The notes beneath the pieces are model-generated. The model saw nothing but the letters and a program-made list of their open reading frames with translations. It had not been told where the DNA came from and searched no databases. 19,285 bases of DNA from a virus. Taxonomy: Duplodnaviria; Heunggongvirae; Uroviricota; Caudoviricetes. The stretch's first letter is position 1; each line of letters begins with the position of its first letter. The position numbers were made by a program, and so were the translations under genes. The stretch covers positions 1 through 19,285 of IMG/VR virus record IMGVR_UViG_2639762844_000001; one strand, 5' to 3'. Positions 1 to 17,934 of this stretch are shown here, in pieces.

Positions 1-1248
1 ATGGCACTGAATATTCCATTCAGAAATGCGTACTATCGTTTTGCATCCAGTTACTCATTTCTCTTTTTTATTTCCTGGTCGCTGTGGTGGTCGTTATACG
101 CTATTTGGCTGAAAGGACATCTAGGGTTGACAGGGACGGAATTAGGTACACTTTATTCGGTCAACCAGTTTACCAGCATTCTATTTATGATGTTCTACGG
201 CATCGTTCAGGATAAACTCGGTCTGAAGAAACCGCTCATCTGGTGTATGAGTTTCATCCTGGTCTTGACCGGACCGTTTATGATTTACGTTTATGAACCG
301 TTACTGCAAAGCAATTTTTCTGTAGGTCTAATTCTGGGGGCGCTATTTTTTGGCTTGGGGTATCTGGCGGGATGCGGTTTGCTTGATAGCTTCACCGAAA
401 AAATGGCGCGAAATTTTCATTTCGAATATGGAACAGCGCGCGCCTGGGGATCTTTTGGCTATGCTATTGGCGCGTTCTTTGCCGGCATATTTTTTAGTAT
501 CAGTCCCCATATCAACTTCTGGTTGGTCTCGCTATTTGGCGCTGTATTTATGATGATCAACATGCGTTTTAAAGATAAGGATCACCAGTGCGTAGCGGCA
601 GATGCGGGAGGGGTAAAAAAAGAGGATTTTATCGCAGTTTTCAAGGATCGAAACTTCTGGGTTTTCGTCATATTTATTGTGGGGACGTGGTCTTTCTATA
701 ACATTTTTGATCAACAACTTTTTCCTGTCTTTTATGCAGGTTTATTCGAATCACACGATGTAGGAACGCGCCTGTATGGTTATCTCAACTCATTCCAGGT
801 GGTACTCGAAGCGCTGTGCATGGCGATTATTCCTTTCTTTGTGAATCGGGTAGGGCCAAAAAATGCATTACTTATCGGAGTTGTGATTATGGCGTTGCGT
901 ATCCTTTCCTGCGCGCTGTTCGTTAACCCCTGGATTATTTCATTAGTGAAGTTGTTACATGCCATTGAGGTTCCACTTTGTGTCATATCCGTCTTCAAAT
1001 ACAGCGTGGCAAACTTTGATAAGCGCCTGTCGTCGACGATCTTTCTGATTGGTTTTCAAATTGCCAGTTCGCTTGGGATTGTGCTGCTTTCAACGCCGAC
1101 TGGGATACTCTTTGACCACGCAGGCTACCAGACAGTTTTCTTCGCAATTTCGGGTATTGTCTGCCTGATGTTGCTATTTGGCATTTTCTTCTTGAGTAAA
1201 AAACGCGAGCAAATAGTTATGGAAACGCCTGTACCTTCAGCAATATAG
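1..1248 (+). CDS. cscB: Sucrose:H+ symporter, LacY-family oligosaccharide permease (415 aa)
   Basis: Full-length ORF with multi-helix hydrophobic profile; sequence recognised from memory as E. coli sucrose permease CscB (MALNIPFRNAYYRF...). Stop TAG at 1246-1248. In csc operons cscB is the last gene of cscKB, so the locus ends here. Confidence 0.9.
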   Translation: MALNIPFRNAYYRFASSYSFLFFISWSLWWSLYAIWLKGHLGLTGTELGTLYSVNQFTSILFMMFYGIVQDKLGLKKPLIWCMSFILVLTGPFMIYVYEPLLQSNFSVGLILGALFFGLGYLAGCGLLDSFTEKMARNFHFEYGTARAWGSFGYAIGAFFAGIFFSISPHINFWLVSLFGAVFMMINMRFKDKDHQCVAADAGGVKKEDFIAVFKDRNFWVFVIFIVGTWSFYNIFDQQLFPVFYAGLFESHDVGTRLYGYLNSFQVVLEALCMAIIPFFVNRVGPKNALLIGVVIMALRILSCALFVNPWIISLVKLLHAIEVPLCVISVFKYSVANFDKRLSSTIFLIGFQIASSLGIVLLSTPTGILFDHAGYQTVFFAISGIVCLMLLFGIFFLSKKREQIVMETPVPSAI

Positions 1249-1257
1249 ACGTAAACT

Positions 1258-1301
1258 TTTTCCGGTTGTTGTCGATAGCTCTATATCCCTCAACCGGAAA
1301 A
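1258..1301. repeat. Perfect 11-bp inverted repeat (TTTTCCGGTTG / CAACCGGAAAA) with 22-nt spacer, 10 nt after the cscB stop
   Basis: Read directly: arms 1258-1268 and 1291-1301 are exact reverse complements. Loop is too long for a canonical intrinsic terminator; could be a protein-binding palindrome or structured 3' end. Confidence 0.4.
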
Positions 1302-1689
1302 TAATAATAGTAAAATGCTTAGCCCTGCTAATAATCGCCTAATCCAAACGCCTCATTCATGTTCTGGTACAGTCGCTCAAATGTACTTCAGATGCGCGGT
1401 TCGCTGATTTCCAGGACATTGTCGTCATTCAGTGACCTGTCCCGTGTATCACGGTCCTGCGAATTCATCAAGGAATGCATTGCGGAGTGAAGTATCGAGT
1501 CACGCCATATTTCGCTATCAGGATTCTGTGTGATGGTTACATCGCCCGGCCCAGGGCTGTTTAGTCATCAGCGCTTTCTGACAGTGCTGAGATTTCAACC
1601 TGTTGCAGTAAAAATGAGTAGATATAAGGCAAGTGTGCTGCCAAACCCATCTTTTACGGGGTGAAGGTAGATTTCGTTTGAAGGGTATC

Positions 1690-1704
1690 TGGTGTCCCCT
1701 GCAG
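1690..1704 (-). other. Prophage att core: 15-bp copy of the argW 3' end (CTGCAGGGGACACCA on the minus strand)
   Basis: TGGTGTCCCCTGCAG at 1690-1704 is the reverse complement of the 3' terminus of tRNA-Arg(CCU) argW as I recall it; identity stops after 15 nt, as expected for a duplicated att core rather than a tRNA gene. Lies 73 bp from the torI stop. Confidence 0.6.
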
Positions 1705-1777
1705 ACATCTACTTGGCGCGGCAGGGGATTGATTGGAATGGTTTTTTTTAGATGTGAAAAATATTTTACCCGCTATT

Positions 1778-1978
1778 TTACCCATTGGCGCGGCTTAAGA
1801 GCTTATTTTTGAATTCACAATGGTCACGATATAACCATCTTGCTCGCCCGTGGATAACTTTGGCTTTTGGCAGGTCGCCGGACTTAATCCGGTCATAGAT
1901 GAAGGTCTTACCGAAGCCAGTATCAGCCATGATGAATTTCAAATCAACCAGTGAATCAGGTTGTAGTTCGTGTTGCAT
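1778..1978 (-). CDS. torI: AlpA/Xis-family recombination directionality factor (excisionase), 66 aa
   Basis: 66-aa ORF MQHELQPDSLVDLKFIMADTGFGKTFIYDRIKSGDLPKAKVIHGRARWLYRDH... recognised from memory as TorI, the KplE1 excisionase; AlpA-type winged-helix pattern; adjacent to the att core at the int-distal end as in K-12. Confidence 0.8.
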   Translation of the reverse strand: MQHELQPDSLVDLKFIMADTGFGKTFIYDRIKSGDLPKAKVIHGRARWLYRDHCEFKNKLLSRANG

Positions 1979-2102
1979 GAGTGCTATCTCCGAATATGGA
2001 ATCGAACCTGCAAATCAGGCAATAAAAAGCCGCATTGATGCAGCAATGGTAGGTCTGGATATCTTGAGAAATGAACAGGCCTCATCGAGTGTGAGACTGT
2101 GG

Positions 2103-2447
2103 TTAGTCCTTGCGTAGCTCGCTGATTCTTCTGTAAGTCTCTGGTGCTTTGTTTCCGTGTATCTTCATTTCAGACTTCAACAGAGCAACGAGAGAATCCC
2201 ATTCGTTGAGGATGCCTTTGAATGCCGGAACGCGCTTTGCAACCTTGTCGAATGAATCTCTGATTTCTGGAATCTGCTCAACAAGTGCAACGCATCGCCG
2301 GAAATCGGCTGCGTCATGTGGAGCACCGAAGCTATGACCATAGATATTCTTTTTCAGTCCACATGCGATTGAGGCAAGAGTTGCGCTACTGATGCCGACA
2401 TCGCCAGTCGATTGCCATTTCAAAACCTTCATAGCCAAATCTGACAT
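2103..2447 (-). CDS. Hypothetical prophage protein, 114 aa, function unknown
   Basis: Clean ORF co-oriented with torI and the lambda-like early genes, typical GC content; no family recognised from sequence (MSDLAMKVLKWQSTGDVGISSATLASIACGLKK...). Confidence 0.55.
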   Translation of the reverse strand: MSDLAMKVLKWQSTGDVGISSATLASIACGLKKNIYGHSFGAPHDAADFRRCVALVEQIPEIRDSFDKVAKRVPAFKGILNEWDSLVALLKSEMKIHGNKAPETYRRISELRKD

Positions 2448-2689
2448 TTCTTGTCTCCATAAAACAAAACTCGCCGTAGCGAGCTCAGATAAAAGAAATC
2501 CCCGTCAGTGCGAGGATGCTGTTCATTGCTGCTATACACTTTTTTGCTCTCAACGTAAGCGGTAGCCCATTCTGTTGGGTTGGTGCAGTTGCTTTTAGGA
2601 AATGCTATTTACCCCTTAAACGTCGGCTGAAAGAGCTAAAATCCATGCAAAAAATTTACGCAATTTTGTGTATTATTGTGCAGTAAGTA

Positions 2690-3292
2690 ATGAGCTATTT
2701 TCTGCGCAAAAAATGGATGGTAAATTTGTCCGGGGCAGGAAAAATTTTATGGGCGCTAAACATGAAAAAAGATTCGTATCCTTATTTGATTTGCATGACA
2801 GTTTCAGGGCTGATCTTTATTTTCCTTTTCTTCTGGTGGCGGGAAGATATCTACAGGGTCACGTTTCTTAATCAGAGTATATCCCACTATTACATTCTGT
2901 TTAGCATGGGAATAGCTTTTCTGTTATCTCTGTTTTGGGTTAAGAAGGGGATAGTAAAACAAAGCGGCTGGAAGAGTCTGTCAGCATACCTTAAGGTTTA
3001 TGCAGGGATGTGCATATTTTCTGGATTTTTTCTGATTATACCCCTTACAACACTAACTTATTTTTTGCCTGGAGAGACATCGTCTTATGTTGCACCGTAT
3101 CGGTATACTTCCGGTAGTTCAAAAAGTTGTTCTGGAGCTGAGGTGGATGACCCCGATCTACATGAGAATATTCGCATTTGCTATCCGTATGGCAATTATG
3201 AGTACGATAATATTATCTATGTTGAAAAGAAAATTAATACATTAGGTGCGGTAGTGACATATGCACAGACCGCGCGTGATGATACTGAATGA
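2690..3292 (+). CDS. AT-rich moron: predicted membrane protein (about 3 TM helices plus Cys/Tyr-rich C-terminal domain), function unknown
   Basis: Only plus-strand gene inside a minus-strand early operon; about 39 percent GC against about 50-55 percent for flanking genes; hydrophobic segments LICMTVSGLIFIFLFFWW, YYILFSMGIAFLLSLFWV, VYAGMCIFSGFFLIIPLTTLTYFL; hairpin terminator just downstream. Start uncertain (ATG 2690, alternative ATG 2762; neither has a strong SD). Confidence 0.6.
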   Translation: MSYFLRKKWMVNLSGAGKILWALNMKKDSYPYLICMTVSGLIFIFLFFWWREDIYRVTFLNQSISHYYILFSMGIAFLLSLFWVKKGIVKQSGWKSLSAYLKVYAGMCIFSGFFLIIPLTTLTYFLPGETSSYVAPYRYTSGSSKSCSGAEVDDPDLHENIRICYPYGNYEYDNIIYVEKKINTLGAVVTYAQTARDDTE

Positions 3293-3326
3293 GATAGTAT
3301 ATAGCGGGCAAGTTTTAGTTAATTTA

Positions 3327-3350
3327 TCGAGGTAATATAATTTACCTCGA
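3327..3350 (+). terminator. Hairpin (9-bp stem TCGAGGTAA / TTACCTCGA, 6-nt loop TATAAT) downstream of the moron gene
   Basis: Read directly; followed by a T-rich stretch (CTCGTTTATT). Sits in the gap between the convergent moron and orf73 genes, so it may act in both directions. Confidence 0.45.
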
Positions 3351-3502
3351 CTCGTTTATTCTGGTATTAATATTTCGCTTTACGATCGATTTTTATCTGA
3401 TGATATCATGCGGTTTTCATATACTGACTTACTGTCTTTTCTCCGTTAGCGATTTTCTCATGCTCAGCGATGATTTTATCTTTGGCTTCTAGTTAATTTC
3501 GC

Positions 3503-3724
3503 TCACTTCGAACCTCTCTGTTTACTGATAAGTTCCAGATCCTCCTGGCAACTTGCACAAGTCCGACAACCCTGAACGGCCAGGCGTCTTCGTTCATCTA
3601 TCGGATCGCCACACTCACAACAATGAGTGGCAGATATAGCCTGGTGGTTCAGGCGGCGCATTTTTATTGCTGTGTTGCGCTGTAATTCTTCTATTTCTGA
3701 TGCTGAATCAATGATGTCTGCCAT
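3503..3724 (-). CDS. TraR/DksA-family C4 zinc-finger protein (lambda Orf73-like), 73 aa
   Basis: CxxC...17...CxxC pattern (CCECGDPIDERRRLAVQGCRTCASC) and length typical of phage TraR homologues that bind RNA polymerase. Confidence 0.8.
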   Translation of the reverse strand: MADIIDSASEIEELQRNTAIKMRRLNHQAISATHCCECGDPIDERRRLAVQGCRTCASCQEDLELISKQRGSK

Positions 3725-3822
3725 CTTTCATTAATCCCTGAACTGTTGGTTAATACGCTTGAGGGTGAATGCGAACAATAAAAAAGGAGCCTGTAGCTCC
3801 CTGATAATTTTGCTTTTCATGT

Positions 3823-4038
3823 TCATCGTTCCTTAAAGACGCCGTTTAACATGCCGATCGCCAGGCTTAAATGAGTTGGTGTGAATCCCATCAGCGTTAC
3901 CGTTTCGCGGTGCTTCTTCAGTACGCTACGGCAAATGTCATCGACGTTTTTATCCGGAAAATGCTGTCTGGCTTTTTTGATTTCAGAATTAGCCTGACGG
4001 GCAATGCTGCGAAGGGCGTTTTCTTGCTGAGGTGTCAT
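3823..4038 (-). CDS. Small lambda-like early-left protein, function unknown (ORF extends to 4104; start placed at internal Met MTPQQ...)
   Basis: ORF in the same operon orientation, in the position of the small lambda b-region ORFs; exact lambda counterpart not recognised. Start codon choice is uncertain. Confidence 0.45.
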   Translation of the reverse strand: MTPQQENALRSIARQANSEIKKARQHFPDKNVDDICRSVLKKHRETVTLMGFTPTHLSLAIGMLNGVFKER

Positions 4039-4114
4039 TGAACAAGCCCCATGTCGGCAAGCATAAGCACACAGAATATGAAGCCCGCTGCCAGAAAAAT
4101 GCATTCAGTGGTTG

Positions 4115-4306
4115 TCATACCTGGTCTCTCTCATCTGCTTCTGCTTTCGCCACCATCATTTCCAGCTTTTGTGAAAGGGATGTGGCTAACGTATGAAATT
4201 CTTCGTCTGTTTCTACTGGTATTGGCACAAACCTGACTCCAATTTGAGCAAGGCTATGTGCCATCTCAATACTCGTTCTTAACTCAACAGGAGATGCTTT
4301 GTGCAT
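4115..4306 (-). CDS. Lambda orf63-like small protein (63 aa)
   Basis: Length and position, overlapping orf60a upstream of exo, match lambda orf63; collinearity with lambda holds at a constant offset from here through ea10. Confidence 0.6.
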   Translation of the reverse strand: MHKASPVELRTSIEMAHSLAQIGVRFVPIPVETDEEFHTLATSLSQKLEMMVAKAEADERDQV

Positions 4307-4461
4307 ACCGCCTCCCGTTTATTATTTATCTTCTCAGCCAGCCGCTGTGCTTTCAGGGGATTTCTGATAACAGAAAGGCCGGGAAATACCCAGCCTCGCT
4401 TTGTAACGGAGTAGACGAAAGTGATCGCGCCTACCCGGATATTATCGTGAGGATGCGTCAT
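4279..4461 (-). CDS. Lambda orf60a-like small protein (60 aa from MTHPHD...)
   Basis: Internal Met gives exactly 60 aa, ending 4 nt inside exo; matches the lambda arrangement. Confidence 0.55.
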
Positions 4462-5138
4462 CGCCATTGCTCCCCAAATACAAAACCAATTTCAGCCAGT
4501 GCCTCGTCCATTTTTTCGATGAACTCCGGCACCATCTCGTCAAAACTCGCCATGTACTTTTCATTCCGCTCAATCACGACATAATGCAGGCCTTCACGCT
4601 TCATGCGCGGGTCATAGTTGGCAAAGTACCAGGCATCTTTTCGCGTCACCCACATGCTGTACTGCACCTGGGCCATGTAAGCCGATTTTATTGCCTCGAA
4701 ACCACCGAGCCGGAATTTCATGAAATCCCGGGAGGTAAACGGGCATTTCAGTTCAAGGCCGTTGCCGTCACTGCATAAACCATCGGGAGAGCAGGCGGTG
4801 CGCATACTTTCGTCGCGATAGATGATCGGGGATTCAGTAATATTCACGCCGGAAGTGAATTCAAACAGGGTTCTGGCGTCGTTCTCGTACTGTTTTCCCC
4901 AGGCCAGCGCCTTAGCATTAACTTCCGGAGCCACACCGGTGCAAACCTCAGCCAGCAGGGTGTGGAAGTAGGATATTTTCATGTCAGGCCACTTCTTTCC
5001 TGAGCGGGGCTTTGCTATCACGTTGTGAACTTCTGAAGCGGTGATGACGCCGAGCCGTAATTTGTGCCATGCATCATCCCCCTGTTCGACAGCTCTCACG
5101 TCGATCCCGGTACGCTGCAGGATAATGTCCGGTATCAT
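4458..5138 (-). CDS. exo: Lambda exonuclease (Red alpha), 226 aa
   Basis: Near-identical to lambda Exo as recalled ([50 protein letters not shown]...); 4-nt overlap with bet as in lambda. Confidence 0.95.
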
Positions 5139-5920
5139 GCTGCCACCTTCTGCTCAGTGGCTTTCTGTTTCAGGAATCCAAGAGCTTTCACTGCTTCGGC
5201 CTGTGTCAGTTCTGACGATGCGCGAATGTCGCGGCGAAATATCTGGGAACAGAGCGGCAATAAGTCGTCATCCCATGTTTTATCCAGGGCGATCAGCAGA
5301 GTGTTAATCTCCTGCATGGTTTCATCGTTAACCGGAGTGATGTCGCGTTCTGGCTGACGTTCTGCAGTGTATGCAGTATTTTCGACAATGCGCTCGGCTT
5401 CATCCTTGTCATAGATACCAGCAAATCCGAAGGCCAGACGGGCACACTGAATCATGGCTTTATGCCGTAACATCCGTTTGGGATGCGACTGCCACGGCCC
5501 CGTGATTTCTCTGCCTTCGCGGGTTTTGAATGGTTCGCGGCGGCATTCATCCATCCATTCGGTAACGCAGATCGGATGATTACGGTCCTTGCGGTAAATC
5601 CGGCATGTACAGGATTCATTGTCCTGTTCAAAGTCCATGCCATCAAACTGCTGGTTTTCATTGATGATGCGGGACCAGCCATCAACGCCCACCACCGGAA
5701 CAATGCCGTTCTGCTTATCAGGGAAGGCGTAAATTTCTTTCGTCCACGGATTAAGGCCGTACTGGTTGGCGACGATCAGCAATGCGATGAACTGCGCATC
5801 GCTGGCATCACCTTTAAATGCCGTCTGGCGAAGAGTGGTGATCAGTTCCTGTGGGTCGACAGAATCCATGCCGACACGTTCAGCCAGCTTCCCTGCCAGC
5901 GTTGCGAGTGCTGTACTCAT
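5135..5920 (-). CDS. bet: Lambda Bet single-strand annealing protein (Red beta), 261 aa
   Basis: Near-identical to lambda Bet as recalled ([66 protein letters not shown]...). Confidence 0.95.
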
Positions 5921-5925
5921 CCGTT

Positions 5926-6342
5926 TTATACCTCTGAATCAATATCAACCTGGTGGTGAGCAATGGTTTCAACCATGTACCGGATGTGTTCTGCCATGCG
6001 CTCCTGAAACTCAACATCGTCATCAAACGCACGGGTAATGGCTTTTTTGCTGGCCCCGTGGCGTTGTAAATGATCGATGCAGAGTGATTCAAACAGGTGC
6101 TGGGGCAGACCTTTTTCCATGTCGTCTGCCAGTTCTGCCTCTTTCTCTTCACGGGCGATCTGCTGGTAGTGACGCGTCCAGCTCTGAGCCTCAAGACGAT
6201 CCTGAATGTAATAAGCGTTCATGGCTGAACTCCTGAAATAGCTGTGAAAATATCGCCCGCGAAATGCCGGGCTGATTAGGAAAACAGGAAAGGGGGTTAG
6301 TGAATGCTTTTGCTTGATCTCAGTTTCAGTATTAATATCCAT
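5926..6342 (-). CDS. gam: Lambda Gam, RecBCD inhibitor, 138 aa
   Basis: Near-identical to lambda Gam as recalled ([36 protein letters not shown]...). Confidence 0.95.
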
Positions 6343-6440
6343 TTTTTATAAGCGTCGACGGCCTCACGAAACATCTTTTCATCGCCAATAAAAGTGGCGA
6401 TAGTGAATTTAGTCTGGATAGCCATAAGTGTTTGATCCAT
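6297..6440 (-). CDS. kil: Lambda Kil host-killing protein (FtsZ inhibitor), 47 aa
   Basis: [47 protein letters not shown]; overlaps gam by 46 nt and cIII by 32 nt, as in lambda. Confidence 0.85.
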
Positions 6441-6573
6441 TCTTTGGGACTCCTGGCTGATTAAGTATGTCGATAAGGCGTTTCCATCCGTCACGTAATT
6501 TACGGGTGATTCGTTCAAGTAAAGATTCGGAAGGGCAGCCAGCAACAGGCCACCCTGCAATGGCATATTGCAT
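6409..6573 (-). CDS. cIII: Lambda CIII, FtsH (HflB) protease inhibitor, 54 aa
   Basis: [54 protein letters not shown] recognised as lambda CIII. Confidence 0.9.
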   Translation of the reverse strand: MQYAIAGWPVAGCPSESLLERITRKLRDGWKRLIDILNQPGVPKNGSNTYGYPD

Positions 6574-6645
6574 GGTGTGCTCCTTATTTATACATAACGA
6601 AAAACGCCTCGAGTGAAGCGTTATTGGTATGCGGTAAAACCGCAC

Positions 6646-7014
6646 TCAGGCGGCCTTGATAGTCATATCATCTGAATCAAATATTCCTGATGTATCGATA
6701 TCGGTAATTCTTATTCCTTCACTACCATCCATTGGAGGCCATCCTTCCTGACCATTTCCATCATCCCAGTCGAACTCACAAACAACACCATATGCATTTA
6801 AGTCTTTCGAAATTGCTATAAGCAGAGCATGTTGCGCCAGCATGATTAATACAGCATTTAATACAGAGCCGTGTTTATTGAGTCGGTATTCAGAGTCTGA
6901 CCAGAAATTATTAATCTGGTGAAGTTTTTCCTCTGTCATTACGTCATGGTCGATTTCAATTTCTATTGATGCTTTCCAGTCGTAATCAATGATGTATTTT
7001 TTGATGTTTGACAT
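6646..7014 (-). CDS. ea10: Lambda Ea10-like early protein (122 aa)
   Basis: Length and sequence match lambda ea10 as recalled; position between cIII and the ral-side region. Confidence 0.8.
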   Translation of the reverse strand: MSNIKKYIIDYDWKASIEIEIDHDVMTEEKLHQINNFWSDSEYRLNKHGSVLNAVLIMLAQHALLIAISKDLNAYGVVCEFDWDDGNGQEGWPPMDGSEGIRITDIDTSGIFDSDDMTIKAA

Positions 7015-7034
7015 CTGTTCATATCCTCATAGAT

Positions 7035-7060
7035 AAAAAATCGCCCTCACACTGGAGGGC
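7035..7060 (-). terminator. Intrinsic terminator on the leftward transcript (stem GCCCTC/GAGGGC, loop ACACTG, then U6), upstream of ea10; lambda tL2-like
   Basis: Read directly: 7043-7060 hairpin, A6 on the plus strand at 7035-7040 gives a U-tract on the minus-strand RNA. In lambda the equivalent terminators are overridden by N, which is absent here. Confidence 0.5.
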
Positions 7061-7226
7061 AAAGAAGATTTCCAATAATCAGAACAAGTCGGCTCCTGTT
7101 TAGTTACGAGCGACATTGCTCCGTGTATTCACTCGTTGGAATGAATACACAGTGTGAAGTGGTTTACTGAATTTGGCCACCTGAACAGAGGTGATATGCT
7201 CACCTCAGAACAACACAGGTGCCATA

Positions 7227-8374
<1,148 letters not shown>

Positions 8375-8404
8375 CTCGGTGGCCAGTTTTTGTTGACCAC
8401 TTCA

Positions 8405-8536
8405 ATCACTGCCGAGCTGGCGAACGGTCAGGTCTATGTACTGTCGTCTGCCTGGCTGCACGGCGAAGCGAACCATAATGCCGAAGAAGGCACGGTTGAT
8501 CTTGAGTTCCACGGTGAAGAAGGGGATTACCAGTAA
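8405..8536 (+). pseudogene. 3' fragment (last 43 codons) of a phage tail-tube-like gene truncated by IS911
   Basis: Open frame runs from the IS911 boundary (ITAELANGQVYVLSSAWLHGEANHNAEEGTVDLEFHGEEGDYQ*) with stop overlapping the next start (TAATG); no start codon, so it is a truncated remnant. Confidence 0.5.
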
Positions 8537-8805
8537 TGAAAGAGCTTGAGTTAAAGAAACCGATTATCGCTCATGGTGAGACACTCTCCGTACTGGAGTT
8601 TGATGAACCCACCGGGAAGGATGTCCGCGAGCTGGGGTATCCCTACCAGATGAATCAGGATGAGTCCGTCAGACTTCTGGCGCATGTGGTGTCGAAATAC
8701 ATTGTGCGGCTGGCGAAAGTGCCGCAAAGCTCTGTCGACCAGATGTCTCCGGCAGACCTGAATGCAGCGGCGTGGCTTGTGGCTGGTTTTTTCCTCCAGG
8801 CCTGA
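8536..8805 (+). CDS. Phage tail assembly chaperone (lambda G / Mu gp41 analogue), 89 aa
   Basis: Small acidic ORF directly upstream of the tape measure gene with a -1 overlapping extension frame; classic G/GT arrangement. Confidence 0.75.
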   Translation: MKELELKKPIIAHGETLSVLEFDEPTGKDVRELGYPYQMNQDESVRLLAHVVSKYIVRLAKVPQSSVDQMSPADLNAAAWLVAGFFLQA

Positions 8806-8954
8806 CGGCTGAATACCTCACTGATCGCTTCTTTGACTGCGCCAGCTACTGGCGCATTAATCCCTTCGAATTGCTGAATATGCCGATCAGTGAAATTCCC
8901 TTGCTGGTCAGTCAGGCAAACAGGATAGAGCAGGAGAAACGCACACATGGCTGA
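8536..8954 (+). CDS. Frameshift-extended tail assembly chaperone (G-T-like fusion, about 139 aa) via -1 slip
   Basis: The -1 frame is open from the slippery site to 8954 and ends overlapping the tape measure start (ATGGCTGA). Confidence 0.6.
8787..8793 (+). promoter_or_regulatory. -1 programmed frameshift slippery heptamer T TTT TTC in the tail chaperone gene
   Basis: Zero-frame codons GGT TTT TTC; the -1 frame gives ...W F F P P G L T... continuing 54 codons. Confidence 0.6.
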
Positions 8955-10782
8955 ATTTGAGCTTAAGGCGTTGATCACCGGTGTCGACAGGCTTTCTCCC
9001 GCGCTGTCGAAAATGCAAAAGAAAATCCGGGGATTTAAACGCCAGGCGGAAGAAGCGTCACAGGGTGGGCTGGCGCTTGGTGGCGGATTGGCAGCGGGGC
9101 TGACGCTTTCCCTGAAATCTTATGCCGATCAGGAAAACGCCGCTACCGGGCTGAAAGTCGCCATGATGGATGCGAACGGCGAGGTTGGAAAGAGCTTTCA
9201 GGACATCAATAAACTGGCTATTGGCCTGGGTAACCAGCTACCCGGTACAACGGCTGATTTCCAGAACATGATGCAGATGCTGGTGCGTCAGGGGATCCCG
9301 GCAGAAAACATTCTGGGTGGTGTGGGTAAAGCGACAGCTTATCTTGCGGTACAACTGAAAAAAACACCGGAAGCGGCTGCCGAGTTTGCAGCAAAGATGC
9401 AGGATGCTACCGGAACGGCCTCAGAAGACATGATGGGGCTGTTCGACACAATTCAGAAGGCGTTTTATCTGGGCGTTGACGACACCAACATGCTGTCATT
9501 CTTCACTAAAACCAGCTCTGTTCTGAAGATGGTGAATAAGGACGGTCTTCAGGCTGCACAGAGTCTTGCCCCCATCAGTGTCATGATGGATCAGATGGGG
9601 ATGAACGGGGAGTCGGCAGGTAATGCCCTGCGAAAAGTTATCCAGTCCGGATTAAGCGTTAAGAAAATTAGGGACGTCAATAAAGTCATGGCCCGCCAGA
9701 AACTCGGGATACAACTCGATTTTACTGATGGCAAAGGGAGTTTTGGCGGTCTTGATAACATGTTCAGGCAACTGGCAAAGTTGCGAAAACTGACCGACGT
9801 TAAGCGAACAGGCGTACTTAAGGCAATATTTGGTGATGATGCCGAAACCCTTCAGGTGGTCAATGCCCTGATCGATAAAGGAAAGGATGGCTACGATCAG
9901 ATCCAGCAGAAGATGAATAAACAGGCCAGCCTGAATAAACGTGTTCAGGCTCAGCTTGGTACGCTGTCCAACCTGTGGGAGGCAATGACGGGGACCGCAA
10001 CTAACGGTCTTGCAGCTATTGGCGGCGCATTTTCTGGTGACGCTAAAAATATCACGCAATGGCTGGGGGAGTTAGGGGAAAAATTCACAAAGTTTGCGGA
10101 TGAAAATCCCCGGGTTATTCGCGGCGTCGTCGGGCTTGCTGCCGGTCTTGCGATTCTGAAGCTGGGATTGATGGGCGTGGGCAGTGCCATCAGTATTGTC
10201 AGCAGGATCATGTCGATGACGCCGATTGGCATGATTGCGACGGCGATAGCCCTGGCTGCGGGATTAATTATCACTAACTGGGATGTTGTCGGACCTTATT
10301 TTAAGAAACTCTGGGAAACCATTGGTCCTTATTTTGAGGCTGGCTGGGAACTCCTTAAGAAAGTTTTTGCCTGGTCGCCGCTGGGGATGGTGATCAATAA
10401 CTGGGGGCCGGTTGTTAAGTGGTTTCAGGATATGTGGGACAAGCTGAAGCCGATTATTGAATGGTTTACCGACAGTTCCGGTGACACGGTCGATACCATT
10501 AACTCGGCGCAGTGGGGCGCGGGTGCTTATGATGCTTATGGGACGGGAATACCGGCACGGGGATACACTCCTTATCCGGCGGTAGATCTGGCTCAGTCAA
10601 ACAACGCCTCCGATGCCACAGGCCCGAATCCCTTCATGATTAACAAAGCTTCTGCGCCAAAAGTTGATGGTGAGATCAAGGTCTCTTTTGTGAATTCGCC
10701 TCCGGGTATGCGGGTTATGGAAACGCGAACCAGCGGTTTTGATGTCAGCCATGATGTTGGCTATACGCGCTTTGGCAGGTAA
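8947..10782 (+). CDS. Tail tape measure protein, 611 aa
   Basis: Long Ala/Gly/Gln-rich largely helical protein with C-terminal hydrophobic and Trp-rich segment, immediately after the chaperone frameshift pair. Confidence 0.9.
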   Translation: MAEFELKALITGVDRLSPALSKMQKKIRGFKRQAEEASQGGLALGGGLAAGLTLSLKSYADQENAATGLKVAMMDANGEVGKSFQDINKLAIGLGNQLPGTTADFQNMMQMLVRQGIPAENILGGVGKATAYLAVQLKKTPEAAAEFAAKMQDATGTASEDMMGLFDTIQKAFYLGVDDTNMLSFFTKTSSVLKMVNKDGLQAAQSLAPISVMMDQMGMNGESAGNALRKVIQSGLSVKKIRDVNKVMARQKLGIQLDFTDGKGSFGGLDNMFRQLAKLRKLTDVKRTGVLKAIFGDDAETLQVVNALIDKGKDGYDQIQQKMNKQASLNKRVQAQLGTLSNLWEAMTGTATNGLAAIGGAFSGDAKNITQWLGELGEKFTKFADENPRVIRGVVGLAAGLAILKLGLMGVGSAISIVSRIMSMTPIGMIATAIALAAGLIITNWDVVGPYFKKLWETIGPYFEAGWELLKKVFAWSPLGMVINNWGPVVKWFQDMWDKLKPIIEWFTDSSGDTVDTINSAQWGAGAYDAYGTGIPARGYTPYPAVDLAQSNNASDATGPNPFMINKASAPKVDGEIKVSFVNSPPGMRVMETRTSGFDVSHDVGYTRFGR

Positions 10783-10806
10783 TGAAAAATTAATCTGTTA
10801 ATGAGT

Positions 10807-10829
10807 CCCACTTCGGTGGGCTTTTTTAT
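10807..10829 (+). terminator. Candidate intrinsic terminator (CCCAC-TTCG-GTGGG plus T6) between the tape measure and DNA-circulation genes
   Basis: Read directly: 5-bp GC stem with TTCG tetraloop followed by CTTTTTTAT, 25 nt after the tape measure stop and just before the SD/ATG at 10843. Confidence 0.4.
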
Positions 10830-10842
10830 ATCCGGAGTTTAT

Positions 10843-12171
10843 ATGACGTGGAAAGACAGGCTTCAGGATGCGTCATTTCGAGGTGTGCCGTTTAAGGTTG
10901 AAGAAGAAAGTGCGGGAACCGGCCGTCGTGTGGAAACACACGAATATCCGAACCGCGACAAACCCTATACCGAAGATCTGGGAAAAGTCACTTTCCGCCC
11001 GTCCATCACAGCTTATGTGGTGGGAGATGACTGCTTTGACCAGCGCGATCGCCTGATTGAAGCGCTGAATAAACCCGGTCCCGGCACGCTTGTCCACCCG
11101 ACATATGGTGAGCTGAAAGTCTGTGTTGACGGGGAAGTTCGGGTCAGCACATCGAAAAGTGAAGGGCGTATTGTCCGCTTTGACCTGAAGTTTGTCGAAG
11201 CGGGAGAACTCTCTTACCCCACATCAGGTGCGGCGACGGCGCAGACGCTGATGTCATCCTGTTCTGCACTGGATGACTGCATCAGTGAAAGTTTCAGTGG
11301 TTTCAGTATCGATGGCGTGGCAGATTTTGTGCAGAACGACGTCGTCGGTAATGCCGGCACAATGCTTGGGTATGTTTCTGATGCGATGAAAGTGGTGGAT
11401 TCTGCCGTATCGGATGCCGCCAGGCTGTTGCAGGGGGATATCTCGGTACTTCTGCCGCCGCCATCGTCAGGCAAAAATTTCGTTGAACAGGTGCAGAAAA
11501 TGTGGCGTACCGGGAAACGCCTTTATGGTAACGCCAGCGACCTGGTCACCATGATCAAAACGCTTTCCGGTGTCAGCCTCGGCAGCGATCTGCAACCGCG
11601 CGGCGTCTGGAAAACGGACAGTAAAACCACCGCTACGGCGACGCAGCAGCGTAACGTGGTTGCCAGCATCCTTCGTACGACCGCAATCAGCGAAGCGGCG
11701 TATGCCGTCACCCGATTGCCTGCGCCAACAACTTCCGCGGTGATGCAGAATGCCGCAGTGGGGCAGGCAACAACACCCGCGCAGAGCACTGGCTGGCCTT
11801 CCGTCACGCATCCGGCACTGAACAATGCACCGGCGGTGAAAAGCACGGTTGACCTGCCGACGTGGGAAGAACTGACTGACATTCGCTACACACTGAATAC
11901 GGCAATTGATAAGGAGTTGTCCCGCACAACCAGTGATGCGCTGTTTCTGGCGCTGCGCCGGGTGAAAGCAGATCTGAATGCGGATATCAACACGCGCCTT
12001 GAACAGTCTGCACGGATCATTCAGCGCACGCCGGATGAGGTTTTACCCGCACTGGTGCTGGCGGCGACCTGGTTTGATAACGCGGCGCGTGACGCGGACA
12101 TTATCCGGCGTAATGCCATTACGCATCCCGGCTTTGTGCCGGTGATCCCTCTGAAGGTGCCAGTGCAATGA
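10843..12171 (+). CDS. Mu gp43-like DNA circulation protein (tail/baseplate), 442 aa
   Basis: N-terminal MTWKDRLQDASFRGVPFKVEEESAGTGRRVETHEYPNRD... typical of the Mu DNA-circulation N-domain; position after the tape measure gene; SD GGAG before the ATG at 10843 (the ORF track starts at an upstream ATG inside the terminator). Confidence 0.75.
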   Translation: MTWKDRLQDASFRGVPFKVEEESAGTGRRVETHEYPNRDKPYTEDLGKVTFRPSITAYVVGDDCFDQRDRLIEALNKPGPGTLVHPTYGELKVCVDGEVRVSTSKSEGRIVRFDLKFVEAGELSYPTSGAATAQTLMSSCSALDDCISESFSGFSIDGVADFVQNDVVGNAGTMLGYVSDAMKVVDSAVSDAARLLQGDISVLLPPPSSGKNFVEQVQKMWRTGKRLYGNASDLVTMIKTLSGVSLGSDLQPRGVWKTDSKTTATATQQRNVVASILRTTAISEAAYAVTRLPAPTTSAVMQNAAVGQATTPAQSTGWPSVTHPALNNAPAVKSTVDLPTWEELTDIRYTLNTAIDKELSRTTSDALFLALRRVKADLNADINTRLEQSARIIQRTPDEVLPALVLAATWFDNAARDADIIRRNAITHPGFVPVIPLKVPVQ

Positions 12172-13247
12172 ACGATAACGTCACGCTACGGGTAAATGGC
12201 CGGGAGTGGAATGGCTGGACATCGGTGCGCATCGGTGCCGGTATTGAACGGCTGGCGCGGGATTTCAGCGTGGAGATCACCCGCCAGTGGCCGGGAGATG
12301 AGGGTATCACCACGCTTCAGCCGCGCATTAAAAATGGTTCAAAAGTGGAAGTGCTGATTGGTGATGAGCTGGTGATCACCGGCTGGGTGGAGGCGACCCC
12401 CGTTCGTTACGATGCCCGTTCGGTCAGCACCGGTATTGCCGGACGTAGTCTGACTGCTGACCTGATTGACTGTGCAGCCGAACCGACACAGTTTAACGGA
12501 CGATCGCTGGTACAGATTGCGCAGGCGCTTGCTGCGCCTTTCGGCATTGAGGTGGTGAACAGCGATGCGCCGTCGGGTGTTATTCCGGATGTCCAGCCTG
12601 ATCACGGTGAAACGGTGATCGAGGTGATCAACAAAATACTCGGTCAGCAGCAGGCGCTGGCTTATGACGACCCGCACGGCAGGCTGGTGATTGGTGGTAT
12701 TGGCTCAACGCGGGCACATACCGCGCTGGTACTTGGGGAAAACATCCTTTCCTGTGATACGGAGAAGAGTATCCGGGAGCGGTTTTCAGTTTACCAGGTG
12801 GCGGGGCAGCGTGCCGGAAACGACGATGATTTCGGTGAGGCCACCACCACCGCGCTGCGGGCCCGCACAGAGGATGCATTTATTGCCCGTTACCGTCCGA
12901 TGTATATCAGGCAGACAGGGCAGGCTACGGGGGCAGGCTGTATTGCGCGTGCTGACTTTGAAGCCCGACAACGGGCGGCGCGGACGGATGAAACCACCTA
13001 TGTGGTGCAGGGCTGGCGACAGGGTAACGGTACGCTGTGGCAGCCCAACCAGCGGGTGATTGTCTTCGATCCGGTCTGTGGTTTCGACAATACCGAACTG
13101 CTTGTCTCGGAAGTCACGTTTACTCAGGACCAGAATGGCACCCTGACGGAAATCCGTGTCGGCCCACCTGATGCTTATCTGCCTGAACCCGAAGCCCCCG
13201 GCGCGCGGAAAAAGAAAAAAGCCAGAGTACAGGAGGACCCGTTCTGA
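12168..13247 (+). CDS. Mu gp44 (P)-like baseplate hub protein, 359 aa
   Basis: Gene order and size match the Mu/SfV/e14 tail module; start overlaps the previous stop (ATGA). Confidence 0.7.
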   Translation: MNDNVTLRVNGREWNGWTSVRIGAGIERLARDFSVEITRQWPGDEGITTLQPRIKNGSKVEVLIGDELVITGWVEATPVRYDARSVSTGIAGRSLTADLIDCAAEPTQFNGRSLVQIAQALAAPFGIEVVNSDAPSGVIPDVQPDHGETVIEVINKILGQQQALAYDDPHGRLVIGGIGSTRAHTALVLGENILSCDTEKSIRERFSVYQVAGQRAGNDDDFGEATTTALRARTEDAFIARYRPMYIRQTGQATGAGCIARADFEARQRAARTDETTYVVQGWRQGNGTLWQPNQRVIVFDPVCGFDNTELLVSEVTFTQDQNGTLTEIRVGPPDAYLPEPEAPGARKKKKARVQEDPF

Positions 13248-13795
13248 TGAAGGCGATTGAAACCATACAGCGACAACTCCTCGGCCTGATTGGGCGGGCG
13301 GTGGTGAAAAGCATCAGTGCCGCCACGAAATGTCAGACCGTGGATGTATCCCTGATTGCCGGTGAACCCAAAGCCGGGGTTGAACATCTTGAACCCTACG
13401 GTTTTACCGCAAGGGCAAACAGCGGTGCGGAAGCGGTGGTGTTGTTTCCGGATGGTGACCGTTCTCATGCGGTGGTTGTTACGGTGTCGGACCGGCGCTA
13501 CCGCCTGAAAGGGCTGCAGACGGGTGAGGTGGCTGTCTATGACGATCAGGGGCAGTCCGTGACGCTGACCCGGGAGGGGATCGTGGTGGACGGTGCAGGT
13601 AAAACGATCACGTTTCGCAATTCACCTAAAGCACGTTTTGAAATGGACCTGGAAGTGACAGGACAGGTGAAAGACCTGTGCGACTCCAGCGGCACCACCA
13701 TGTCAGCGATGCGGCTTGCCTATAACGGGCATCGTCACAGAGAGAACGGTCAGGGCAGTAACACCGACAAACCTGATAAAGCGATGGAGGCATGA
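13247..13795 (+). CDS. Baseplate assembly protein V-like (Mu gp45-like spike), 182 aa
   Basis: Size and order; translationally coupled (TGATGA) to the hub gene. Confidence 0.7.
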   Translation: MKAIETIQRQLLGLIGRAVVKSISAATKCQTVDVSLIAGEPKAGVEHLEPYGFTARANSGAEAVVLFPDGDRSHAVVVTVSDRRYRLKGLQTGEVAVYDDQGQSVTLTREGIVVDGAGKTITFRNSPKARFEMDLEVTGQVKDLCDSSGTTMSAMRLAYNGHRHRENGQGSNTDKPDKAMEA

Positions 13796-14220
13796 TGGAA
13801 CTGTGGCTGACGGTGAACGGTAAACGCACCTGCGCCAGCGCACCGCTGGATCCGCTGACCCGCGCCGTGGTGATTTCCCTGTTTACCTGGCGGCGGGCGG
13901 AGCCTGATGACAACGCCGACGTCCCGATGGGATGGTGGGGGGATACCTGGCCTGCGGTACAGAATGACCGTTACGGCTCCCGACTGTGGCTGCTTCAGCG
14001 CAGCAAACTGACCAATCAGCTGGTGCTGACGGTAAGGGGGTATATCCGCGAATGCCTGCAATGGATGATTGATGACGGCGTGGTGTCCCGTATTGATCTG
14101 GATATCCGCCGCACCGGGATTAATGAACTGGGTAACAGTATCACTCTCTGGCGTCGTGACGGACCGGTAATGATTTCTTTTGATGATCTGTGGAGTGCGA
14201 TAACGCATGGCGGACAGTGA
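13792..14220 (+). CDS. Mu gp46-like baseplate protein, 142 aa
   Basis: Size and order in the Mu-like baseplate cluster; start overlaps the upstream stop. Confidence 0.65.
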   Translation: MMELWLTVNGKRTCASAPLDPLTRAVVISLFTWRRAEPDDNADVPMGWWGDTWPAVQNDRYGSRLWLLQRSKLTNQLVLTVRGYIRECLQWMIDDGVVSRIDLDIRRTGINELGNSITLWRRDGPVMISFDDLWSAITHGGQ

Positions 14221-15265
14221 ATTTCAGCGCCCGACGCTGGCTGAAAATATCAGTATGCTCCGTAACGATTTATTCGCCAGGCTGGACGTCAGCGACACGC
14301 TCCGGCGCATGGATGAAGACGTGCGGGCAAAGGTGTATGCGGCGGCGCTGCATACGGTTTACGGGTACATCGATTATCTGGCAATGAACATGCTGCCTGA
14401 CCTGTGCGATGAGTCCTGGCTGGCGCGACATGCTGCGATGAAACGGTGTCCGCGCAAGGGGGCCACGGCTGCCAGCGGGTATATGCGCTGGGAAGGTGTC
14501 AGCGATGGCCTGAAGGTGACCGCCGGGAGTGTTATTCAGCGCGATGACCTGGTTCAGTATACTGCAACTGCCGATGCAACCAGCTCCGGTGGTGTCCTGC
14601 GCGTGCCGATCGCCTGCTCAAATGCAGGCGCGGTCGGTAACGCTGACGACGGTACGGCATTAATCCTGGTCACGCCGGTGAATGGTCTGCCGTCTTCCGG
14701 TGTGGCTGACACCCTGACAGGCGGATTTGATACTGAAGAGCTGGAAACGTGGCGCGCCCGCGTCATTGAGCGGTATTACTGGACGCCGCAGGGCGGGGCT
14801 GACGGGGACTATGTCGTATGGGCTAAAGAAGTGCCCGGCATTACCCGCGCATGGACATACCGTCACTGGATGGGAACGGGAACTGTCGGTGTGATGATTG
14901 CCAGCAGTGACCTGATTAATCCCATTCCGGAAGAATCAACGGAAACGGCGGCAAGACAACATATCGGGCCACTGGCCCCGGTGGCAGGCTCTGATTTGTA
15001 TGTGTTCAGGCCGGTGGCACATACGGTGGATTTTCATATCCGCGTGACGCCGGACACACCGGAAATACGGGCTGCCATCACCGCGGAGTTGCGTTCGTTC
15101 CTGCTGCGTGATGGTTATCCGCAGGGAGAACTGAAGGTATCGCGTATCAGTGAGGCGATTTCCGGTGCGAACGGGGAATACAGCCATCAGTTGCTTGCAC
15201 CGGCAGACAATATCTCCATTGCAAAAAATGAACTGGCGGTACTGGGGACGATTTCATGGACGTGA
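14207..15265 (+). CDS. Baseplate J-like protein (Mu gp47-like), 352 aa
   Basis: Size and order; overlapping start. Confidence 0.75.
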
Positions 15266-15840
15266 CAAACGATGATTACATCCGTCTGTTGTCGGCACTG
15301 TTGCCCCCCGGTCCGGCGTGGTCAGCCAGCGATCCGGCGATTGCCGGTGCGGCACCGTCATTAACCCGCGTTCATCAGCGTGCGGATGCCCTGATGCGGG
15401 AGCTGGATCCGCGCACCACCACTGAACTGATAAACCGCTGGGAGCGTCTGTGCGGTCTGCCGGATGAATGTATTCCCGCAGGGACACAGACCCTTCGCCA
15501 GCGTCAGCAACGGCTGGATGCGAAGGTTAACCTGGCGGGCGGCATCAACGAGAATTTTTATCTTGCACAGCTTGCTGCCCTGGGCAGACCAGACGCTACC
15601 ATCACGCGATACGACAAAAGCACGTTCACCTGCTCATCGGCCTGTACTGACGCGGTGAATGCGCCGGAATGGCGGTATTACTGGCAGGTCAACATGCCAG
15701 CCGCCACAAACACCACCTGGATGACATGTGGCGATCCCTGTGATTCCGCGCTGCGTATCTGGGGCGACACCGTTGTCGAATGTGTGCTTAACAAACTCTG
15801 CCCGTCGCATACCTACGTAATTTTTAAATATCCGGAGTAA
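15256..15840 (+). CDS. Mu gp48-like tail protein (YmfQ/DUF2313-like), 194 aa
   Basis: Size and order; Cys-rich C-terminus; directly precedes the tail fibre gene. Confidence 0.7.
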
Positions 15841-15843
15841 TCC

Positions 15844-16767
15844 ATGCATCGTATAGACACGAAAACCGCGCAGAAGGATAAGTTCGGCGCGGGTAAGAAC
15901 GGTTTTACCCGTGGTAACCCCCAGACTGGCACACCTGCCACCGATCTGGATGATGACTACTTTGATATGTTGCAGGAGGAGCTTTGCAGCGTGGTGGAGG
16001 CATCCGGTGCCAGCCTGGAGAAGGGGCGGCACGATCAGTTGCTTACCGCACTTCGCGCGCTGCTGTTAAGCCGCAAGAATCCGTTTGGCGATATCAAATC
16101 GGATGGCACTGTGCAAACGGCTCTCGAAAACCTTGGTTTGGGAGAAGCCACATTTGGCGCTCAAAATTGCGCTGTATTTGATAATGCAGGCGTCAGCACC
16201 TGGAATGTTCCTGACATAGTGAAAAAGGGCCGACGCGTCAGGGTGAAGGTTATCGGCGGTGGCGGGTCTGGCGGTTACCCGTCGATAAGCTCAACGAACG
16301 CTGCCGGTGGCGGCGGCGGTGGCGGCGGTGGTGTGAGCGAGTCCGTCATTGACTTAACAGGTATTGACACCGTCACAATCACTGTAGGCAGTGGTGGAAA
16401 AGGTCAAAATACGTCAGCAAGAAACGGAAATCCTGGTGGCACCAGTAGTTTTGGCACATATCTCTCGGCAACAGGCGGATATGGTGGAGGTCAGATATCC
16501 GGAGGAGTGGGGGGAGAAGGTGTGGGGGGGCAGATAAATACGTCTCTTGGCCCAGGCTCTCCTGGTGCATCAATGATAGCAGGCACTGATTCGGCTGTCG
16601 GAGGTAGTGGCGGTGGTCCTGGCGGGCATGGACAGGTTTTAGATTCGGCGGGGAATGTTGGCAGTAATGCAAAAGGTCCTGGCGGTGGTGGCGCTGGGTT
16701 GGCAACGAAAAAGACTGGCGGAGTTACTGGTGCTGGTCATAGCGGGATTGTAATTATTTATTGGTGA
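15844..16767 (+). CDS. Tail fibre protein with conserved N-terminal anchor and glycine-rich C-terminal region, 307 aa
   Basis: N-terminus [40 protein letters not shown]... resembles side tail fibre N-domains; the C-terminal half is Gly-rich (G9 run encoded by a GGN repeat near 16305-16332). Confidence 0.7.
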
Positions 16768-16777
16768 GGTATAAATT

Positions 16778-16945
16778 ATGTGGGCACGAATTGAAAACAA
16801 CGTGGTAATGGAGTTAACTGATATAGACCCAACGGGTAGATATCATGACTCGTTAATCTGGGTTGAATGCCCTCCTGACACTCAGCGTGGCTATATATAC
16901 AATAGCGGCGAATTTACGCCTCCACCGGAGGTGGCAGCCAGTTGA
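16778..16945 (+). CDS. Small ORF (55 aa) downstream of the tail fibre; possible tail fibre assembly or accessory protein, or remnant
   Basis: ATG 11 nt after the fibre stop; phage-like GC content. Below the 60-aa cutoff of the ORF track; identity not recognised. Confidence 0.35.
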   Translation: MWARIENNVVMELTDIDPTGRYHDSLIWVECPPDTQRGYIYNSGEFTPPPEVAAS

Positions 16946-17258
16946 TATCGAAGGCATTCAGAATGTTATGCCACGTTAAAAATTCTGCAGATTCATCACA
17001 TTATTCAGTCATTCTTCAAAGTAAATGGCTAATTACGACAATGTTAAATTTCAGCTTTGAAGTGCCATTGGCTATCTTTCTTGCATATTCATCAGTAAGT
17101 AGCTTCAATAGACTGCCTTCACATTCTGGAAGGCATATTTTGCTTTGGTCATCTTTCTGAATTTCCAGACACCTGACTCGATAGTGTCGAGATACTATCT
17201 TTACTCGTGAGAGTTAGGTTGGACCAGATTGCTTTATCGAAACTAAAGGATTGAGACA

Positions 17259-17297
17259 AGTGTCATTCTTTTTTAAGTCTTTTACCTGAATGACACT
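17259..17297. repeat. Perfect 10-bp inverted repeat (AGTGTCATTC / GAATGACACT) with 19-nt T-rich spacer, 50-90 nt downstream of the minus-strand cargo gene
   Basis: Read directly; may be a terminator or a binding site at the 3' side of the AT-rich gene. Confidence 0.4.
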
Positions 17298-17346
17298 AAA
17301 TCTTTAATACTACTGATAATTTCCTTTAGATATTCTTGTCGAGTGG

Positions 17347-17934
17347 TTATCTAAATGTTTTGATATACTTGAGATAATATCTGTGTCTGAAGTTGAACAA
17401 TACATCTCCCGGGTAAATATTACCATTGCTCTCAACGAGTCCTTTGTTTTCTTTCGAGGTGAAAGATATCGTTCTTTTTATTTTTAACTCATTAAATTTC
17501 ATTACATCCATGTAACTTCCATCTCTATCACACATTTTAAAAACAACTCTATCAAGGCCATGTGATGATATAAAAGATTGAAGTCTTTTTATTCTTCTAT
17601 TCCATTTATCCATGGCTTCTGCCCTTGAGTTATAATGCATAAAGTATATTTTTACTCCATCCACAAATGCAACGGGGAAATTATGCTCTGTATTAATGAA
17701 ATCGCTTTCAACAATGTCTCTTGATAAAAAATGCTCCAAATTAATACACATTTCAACAAAATCAGATGCTGTGATGTACAGGCCGATAAAGGGAGTATTA
17801 TATTCAAGTCCTATATTTTTATATAGTCTATAGCCCCAGCAGTTATTGGATACAATAGCGAAAGGACGGGTTATTAAAATTTTGTCCAGAAAGTCAAATA
17901 ATCCAGTTTTGTGCAATATCTTATCTACCAACAT
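17347..17934 (-). CDS. AT-rich integrase-proximal cargo gene, 195-aa soluble protein of unknown function; tentative resemblance to DUF1919 proteins of polysaccharide loci
   Basis: About 33 percent GC inside a roughly 50-55 percent GC prophage; SD AAGGA 7 nt before the ATG; co-oriented with intS 193 bp downstream of it, in the slot that holds gtrABS in K-12 KplE1. The motif SNNCWGY...GLEYNTPFIGLY matches my recollection of the DUF1919 hallmark; not verified. Confidence 0.65.
   Translation of the reverse strand: MLVDKILHKTGLFDFLDKILITRPFAIVSNNCWGYRLYKNIGLEYNTPFIGLYITASDFVEMCINLEHFLSRDIVESDFINTEHNFPVAFVDGVKIYFMHYNSRAEAMDKWNRRIKRLQSFISSHGLDRVVFKMCDRDGSYMDVMKFNELKIKRTISFTSKENKGLVESNGNIYPGDVLFNFRHRYYLKYIKTFR

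Follow-up and report, generated by a model that had tools for sequence, protein, structure and literature searches.

An argW-bounded attR junction beside torI in a truncated SfI-like prophage, with an excision module that is probably still competent

Between the sucrose permease gene cscB and the excisionase gene torI lies a 15-nt sequence that an earlier note took for the 3' end of argW (tRNA-Arg CCU). The question raised by this locus is whether the 15-mer is the point at which a prophage joined the chromosome and, if so, whether an element that appears unable to make particles could still leave it. The window (the whole stretch of DNA analyzed, 19,285 nt) contains one end of the predicted element together with its flank, and stops just short of the other end. 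Taken as a whole, the evidence makes it very probable that the site is the attR junction of an argW-integrated KplE1-type module, which has probably retained its excision competence. The features on which the argument rests are as follows.

1-1248, + strand: cscB, a sucrose/oligosaccharide MFS permease (415-aa ORF), the chromosomal flank gene
1249-1689, no strand: chromosomal (B-side) attR flank, the cscB-argW intergenic region of prophage-free strains
1690-1704, - strand: attR core, repeating the final 15 nt of argW (- strand sequence CTGCAGGGGACACCA), the counterpart of pseudogene pawZ (b4643) in K-12
1705-1801, no strand: phage-derived attR arm, out to the limit of the 135-bp attR substrate shown to be functional in vitro for KplE1
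1763-1783, - strand: two tandem GGGTAAAAT repeats (1763-1771 and 1775-1783), presumed IntS arm-type sites, overlapping the torI stop codon
1778-1978, - strand: torI, recombination directionality factor (excisionase) and TorR inhibitor, 66/66 identical to K-12 TorI
7155-8404, + strand: ISEc52 (IS3 family), with ends TGAAGTGG...CCACTTCA and rve domains, at the internal deletion
18128-19285, - strand: intS, heterobivalent tyrosine integrase, its start codon being the last triplet of the window

The core reads exactly TGGTGTCCCCTGCAG on the + strand, in the local context ...aagggtatc TGGTGTCCCCTGCAG acatctacttgg..., and no second copy was found on either strand of the window with up to 2 mismatches tolerated. 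An exact 15-mer is expected by chance only about 3.6e-5 times in 19.3 kb searched on two strands. The torI ORF leaves 73 nt (1705-1777) between the core and the torI stop codon, which is the distance given in the earlier note and is identical to the gap between pawZ and torI in K-12, where the identical 15 nt at the boundary of CPS-53 are labeled as that pseudogene. In HK620 and Sf6 the same bases, plus one more, are annotated as the 'attP core'.

No tRNA genes were found in the window by ARAGORN, and its last triplet is the start codon of intS. As argW lies outside the window, its sequence had to be read from relatives. A megablast search of 5,426 complete E. coli genomes shows that genomes 99-100% identical to window positions 8405-19285 exist. 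Ec40743 (L002) and Res13 (L001) carry intS, a 161-bp spacer, an annotated tRNA-Arg on the same strand, and then yfdC, so that in genomes 100% identical to this part of the window argW does lie beyond intS in the orientation the earlier note had expected. In window orientation the tRNA-Arg beside intS reads tggtgtcccctgcaggaatcgaacc... in three genomes (Res13, Ec40743 and K-12); in the same orientation the gene of Ec40743 and Res13 reads tggtgtcccctgcaggaatcgaacctgcaattagccc..., and K-12 argW is identical. Read against these annotated genes, the 15-mer corresponds, as reverse complement, to the final 15 nt of argW with its CCA, and forms a direct repeat with the resident gene. The match proposed in the earlier note is exact in all three.

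Ec40743 is also 100% identical to window positions 1200-7154, and because it matches both parts of the window, one sequenced genome has both core copies around a prophage with the same ends. A direct duplication of the argW 3' end thus bounds the prophage, with the attR copy in the window and the attL/argW copy in Ec40743 and Res13. Should the sequence beyond the window be like that of Ec40743, a second core would fall at about 19447-19461, giving an excisable unit of about 17,757 bp. The attL region of Ec40743 is identical to that of K-12 at 175 of 176 positions. The sequence would be expected to run on into an intact attL and argW, as it does in the 100%-identical relatives.

The length and the name of the site need adjustment. 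The published KplE1 core has 16 nt, CTGCAGGGGACACCAT (PMC2951348), of which 15 positions are duplicated here (core CTGCAGGGGACACCA[T]); the sixteenth fails to match because the chromosome has a C at 1689, a position occupied by A in attP and attL. The 15-mer of the earlier note stands as a sequence, but as a core it falls one position short of the 16 nt of K-12. Phage Kapi1 integrates at the same site and has a 17-bp duplication in its host, as shown experimentally (PMC8787464). The length of the duplication thus depends on the first bases of the host downstream of argW. The 'left prophage boundary' of the earlier note is likewise a genuine junction under an unsuitable name, since in the KplE1 literature the torI-side end is attR.

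Whether 1690-1704 is the edge of the prophage was judged from where similarity stops and from both products that recombination at this point would give. When K-12 is aligned with the window, no relationship is seen to the left of the core (dsdC side versus cscB side), and from the core through torI identity is about 95%. The BLAST breakpoint is at 1690 for both K-12 and HK620, and similarity to K-12 KplE1, HK620, Sf6 and N7 begins exactly at the left edge of the core. A predicted attB, made up of window 1400-1704 and the remaining argW and yfdC of Ec40743, is found uninterrupted in many genomes, with 100% identity along its whole length of 608 nt, and 1415 genomes contain 80% or more of it at a single location. 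Strain 120899 (L006) is prophage-free and has the order cscA-cscK-cscB-argW-yfdC; window 1-1704 is 100% identical to positions 2602-4305 of its record, which run directly into argW. A predicted attP, composed of the intS-side arm of Ec40743, the core and window 1705-1990, is present unbroken in 15 free phages at 96-98.5% identity, including N7, IME10, Sf6, HK620 and HK633. In HK620 and Sf6 the annotated 16-nt 'attP core' is at precisely the matching position, flanked by the genes for the TorI homologue and the integrase. Joining the prophage ends thus restores attP, and joining the chromosomal flanks restores attB. The empty sites in other strains indicate that the site is in use; they say nothing on past excision of the present element.

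These comparisons make it virtually certain that 1690-1704 is the true prophage/chromosome recombination junction, attR. The 15-mer might otherwise have arisen by chance, or be left over from an earlier integration at argW, such as that of the csc island, with the true edge elsewhere. The argW-dsdCXA/csc region has been described as hypervariable (Moritz and Welch 2006, as cited in PMC8787464), and the csc flank here differs from the dsdC of K-12. Against this, all comparisons place the start of phage homology at base 1705, prophage-free genomes join 1704 straight to the rest of argW at 100% identity, and the search of the window at up to 2 mismatches gave no other core-like copy. A chance origin is rejected on the expectation of about 3.6e-5 and on the unbroken attB and attP counterparts. 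As far as the alignments go, the attB and attP matches have already refuted both variants, and the probability left to them is negligible.

The flank itself shows that the region varies. In records L004 and L006, where it is 100% identical, cscB is annotated as 'oligosaccharide MFS transporter' and lies downstream of cscA and cscK, and the stretch from 1249 to 1689 has no similarity to the dsdC-side flank of K-12. The flank belongs to the csc sucrose regulon (dsdC in K-12), and in relatives cscK, cscA, a LacI-family regulator and a truncated dsdX are found further out. It illustrates the known hypervariability of the argW-dsd region. In Res13, cscB itself is interrupted by an IS3-family element.

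On the phage side of the junction, the attR arm is strongly conserved. Primer attR-IHF2 (PMC3509656) matches exactly at 1782-1801. Over the core and arm (113 nt) there are 5 differences relative to K-12 and to HK620, 1 relative to N7 and none relative to JNE170426. The two GGGTAAAAT repeats coincide with the HK620 'attP' repeat_region 1441-1463 and are invariant in the alignment of K-12, HK620, Sf6, N7 and IME10. The IntS arm-type sites mapped on attL have a conserved TAAA motif (PMC2951348), and the GGGTAAAAT repeats fit such sites, so that they are presumed to bind IntS. By sequence, then, a conserved attR arm with putative IntS arm-type repeats is present; the positions of IHF and IntS sites on attR are taken from the HK620 annotation, primer names and sequence conservation. 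The earlier note had pointed to the surroundings of torI for comparison with the TorI binding sites of KplE1. That was the wrong end of the element: TorI binds cooperatively to five sites on attL, overlapping the intS promoter (PMC3509656, PMC2951348), which here would lie beyond the window, and the torI side has the GGGTAAAAT repeats instead.

Some smaller features of the arm may be recorded. A third exact copy of GGGTAAAAT lies inside intS (18908-18916, + strand) and is equivalent to an 'attP' repeat in the int gene of HK620 (L005, 829-839). Position 1743 is T here and otherwise only in JNE170426; K-12, HK620, Sf6, N7, IME10 and Res13 have G. The T lengthens a T-run of the arm, in an A/T tract beside an IHF-like AATCAA motif on the - strand; a candidate IHF-like site was seen by eye as AATCAATCCCCTG after an A-tract, on the - strand at about 1725-1750. 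An Rfam scan gave no match at the att site. In HK620 and Sf6 a small - strand ORF (hkaB / gene 17) spans the attP core and is split by integration, and only the torI-proximal part of an hkaB-type ORF is left in the window. A 59-aa ORF across the core on the + strand (1633-1812) is probably spurious.

Both recombination proteins are intact by alignment. TorI has the same accession (WP_001163428.1) as the proteins of L001 and L004, and TorI/HkaC is the last gene at its end of the element, adjoining attR. IntS is identical to K-12 IntS at 378 of 384 positions (98%), gapless and over its full length, with the Pfam domains Arm-DNA-bind_3 (PF13356), Phage_int_M (PF22022) and Phage_integrase (PF00589). 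Its six substitutions (44, 64, 102, 130, 346 and 380) fall, on reading of the alignment, outside the R..K..HxxR..H..Y catalytic motifs. At the argW end there is thus an IntS-type integrase with an arm-binding N-terminus, transcribed toward the inside of the prophage, and the RDF gene is at the opposite end. The combination of integrase, excisionase and att core that the earlier note had listed is all present, with the core exact. Many prophages, as well as HK620, Sf6 and CUS-3, share this highly conserved module (attL, attR, intS, torI; PMC2951348, PMC3509656), and its torI-attR part was found in 1405 of the 5426 complete E. coli genomes (about 26%).

The arrangement would be explained by a temperate phage with an int-attP-xis module of the KplE1/HK620/Sf6 type that integrated into the 3' end of argW. 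Its attP, between torI (xis) and intS, would have carried a copy of the tRNA 3' end. Exchange by IntS inside the shared segment would have rebuilt an intact argW beside intS (attL, just beyond the window), and the displaced chromosomal 15-nt tRNA end would have stayed beside torI as attR. Integrase and excisionase would then be at opposite ends of the prophage because integration split the xis-attP-int order. In excision, IntS would act on the core and arm-type sites, TorI cooperatively on the five attL sites, and the host would supply IHF; the products would be a circle of about 17.76 kb and an empty cscB-argW site.

Retained excision competence is a good deal less firmly placed than the junction, and is regarded here as probable. 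With TorI at 100%, IntS at 98% and an attR arm nearly identical to that of K-12, competence is plausible, and since every module component visible in the window is intact it becomes likely; the recombination module may thus still be active. KplE1, a 10.2-kb remnant with the same module, excises in vivo and in vitro (PMC2951348, PMC3509656), and excision dependent on IntS, TorI and IHF, shown for K-12 KplE1 only, has been reconstituted in vitro for that element (PMC3509656, PMC2951348). In K-12, CPS-53 excises in fewer than 1 in 100,000 cells, with efficient curing only when TorI is overproduced (PMC3105296), and inhibition of Rho raises the copy number of the CPS-53 region (PMC11551753). The normal early promoter for torI is gone here and a route for its transcription is not evident in the window; the frequency of excision is probably very low. 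Since the element is truncated and without particles, excision would mean loss of the element rather than phage production.

It is also conceivable, if appreciably less likely than retained competence, that the junction is real and the element is locked, through damage to attL, lack of torI expression once the early promoter and regulatory region had been lost, or impairment of intasome assembly by the change at 1743 or by those in IntS. Several observations lean this way. attL lies beyond the window; an IS-associated deletion took everything from the DUF2528/cIII region to the tail-tube gene; and in Res13 an IS1 has inserted between intS and the DUF1919 gene, 65 bp past the intS stop codon, a sign that the surroundings of the module are decaying in this lineage. 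Moreover, T1743 is unmatched in the free phages and K-12 sequences compared, and spontaneous excision of CPS-53 in K-12 is already below 1e-5 (PMC3105296). On the other side, the active K-12 proteins are matched fully by TorI and at 98% by IntS, whose 6 substitutions lie outside the catalytic motifs; the arm repeats and the core are intact; the attL of the relative matches the functional K-12 attL at 175 of 176 positions; and K-12 KplE1 is also without repressor and early region, yet excises. The balance of these points favors an element that can still excise, if rarely.

What would be excised is a remnant. The right end of ISEc52 abuts the middle of the tail-tube gene, window position 8405 corresponding to position 12001 of the Ec40743 record (L002), and the window follows the sequence of JNE170426 up to 8404 and that of Ec40743 from 8405. 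Relative to the prophage of Ec40743 (about 35 kb), the genes from essD to the sheath are missing (those for lysis, terminase, portal, protease, capsid, connector and sheath), and the deletion extends into the 5' portion of the tail-tube gene. The IS cuts off the lambda-like early operon a short way upstream of the DUF2528 gene and cIII, and the PL, N, cI and cII region is absent from the window upstream of cIII, kil, gam, bet and exo. The gene set of an intact phage (terminase, portal, capsid, sheath/tube, lysis and immunity) was accordingly not found in the window, and the view of the earlier note that the element cannot form particles holds, as the head, terminase, sheath and lysis genes of Ec40743 are gone. 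A reading of the retained tail genes as a tailocin was rejected, since the deletion has removed the sheath gene along with the 5' portion of the tube gene. Judged by its gene content and alignments, the element is an SfI/SfV-like myovirus prophage of about 17.8 kb, truncated beside ISEc52.

Two other features of the element stand apart from this argument. The sole Rfam match in the window is Lambda_thermo (RF01804, the cIII thermoregulator), at 6528-6586 on the - strand, full length with 88.5 bits, upstream of the lambda-like cIII/kil/gam/bet/exo block. A DUF1919 gene (17347-17934, - strand; PF08942, E = 3.5e-33) lies between the tail-fiber genes and intS, in the slot usually taken by O-antigen modification genes in argW and Shigella phages, where K-12 has yfdGHI.

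The join at 8404/8405 reflects either a deletion of roughly 17 kb next to the IS, specific to this strain, or, with lower probability, a mis-join in the assembly. If contigs had been wrongly joined across the repeated IS, the remnant would be partly an artefact and the real prophage would be of the Ec40743 type (about 35 kb); a full element of that size could still be non-viable, yet it encodes heads and tails. Such a mis-join would explain why the ISEc52/tail-tube junction is in 0 of 5426 complete E. coli genomes, why no target-site duplication is present around the IS, and why both sides are 100% identical to longer prophages. In none of the 5,426 genomes searched does a single location account for 80% or more of the window. 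Deletions next to an IS that leave no target duplication are, however, common in IS3-family biology, and their frequency counts against a mis-join. In JNE170426 this IS shares its left flank with the window but has another right flank, also without a duplication, and there is no mis-join signal in the window itself. A mis-join is accordingly considered improbable, and it would leave the attR assignment unaffected.

A further reading of the truncated element would have the strain-specific, SfI-like remnant kept as an excisable, non-infectious cassette, its module intact by selection rather than through recent descent. This is very unlikely. If it were true, possible reasons might be the role of TorI as a TorR inhibitor or an adaptive, reversible loss of cargo (DUF1919 and tail fibers), and T1743 and the 15-nt (rather than 16-nt) core might tune the frequency of excision.

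Taking the site as attR of a truncated prophage, the junction type is already known, having been annotated and experimentally characterized in K-12. Its identification here fixes the edge of the prophage at 1704/1705, dividing phage cargo from the csc sucrose-utilization genes, and puts the predicted length of the element, whose far end would be at argW, at about 17.76 kb; this has little importance beyond correct annotation. It also adds a further case of a KplE1/HK620-type module moving between unrelated phage backbones, here to an SfI/SfV-like myovirus, and of a recombination module outliving the structural genes. Both module transfer and such outliving are already in the KplE1 literature.

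The closest counterpart is KplE1 (CPS-53) of K-12. It shares the site, the same 15 nt, the 73-nt spacing and 108 of 113 positions of the attR core and arm, has an identical TorI and a 98% identical IntS, carries int and xis at opposite ends, and is likewise defective and without head genes. The differences are that K-12 duplicates 16 nt (with the extra A/T), that its flank is dsdC rather than cscB, and that its cargo consists of yfd genes within 10.2 kb, in place of the SfI/SfV-like early and tail genes with ISEc52 in about 17.8 kb. The P22-like argW integrators (HK620, Sf6, N7, IME10, HK633 and Kapi1) resemble the element in that the reconstructed attP is found unbroken at 96-98.5% identity; in HK620 and Sf6 the attP core and repeat elements are annotated at matching positions, and the core and arm of N7 are a single base off. 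These are viable podoviruses, whereas the element here has a truncated myovirus backbone, and the recombination module alone is held in common.

For the rest of the element, the relatives are the Shigella serotype-converting phages SfI, SfII and SfV, with 97-98% nucleotide identity over the early-left and the tail/baseplate genes. SfI covers 63% of the element (the match spans query positions 1825-14444 of 17581) and ends short of both the torI-attR end and the intS end; because both ends are missing from the match, the int-att-xis module is assigned to the KplE1/HK620 type. The backbone from 1705 to 16150 of the window is SfI/SfII/SfV-like, a pattern suggestive of a clean exchange of the module at each end of the prophage. 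Modular mosaicism has been described for the int-att-xis module (PMC3509656). Lambda offers a more distant parallel, with a heterobivalent tyrosine integrase, core and arm sites, an RDF, host IHF, and attL and attR junctions (PMC2951348). The int and xis genes of lambda are neighbors transcribed together, and its Xis binds attR; in the KplE1-type module, by contrast, attP separates int from xis, attL is the site bound by TorI, and intS is under autoregulation at a promoter that overlaps attL (PMC3509656, PMC2951348).
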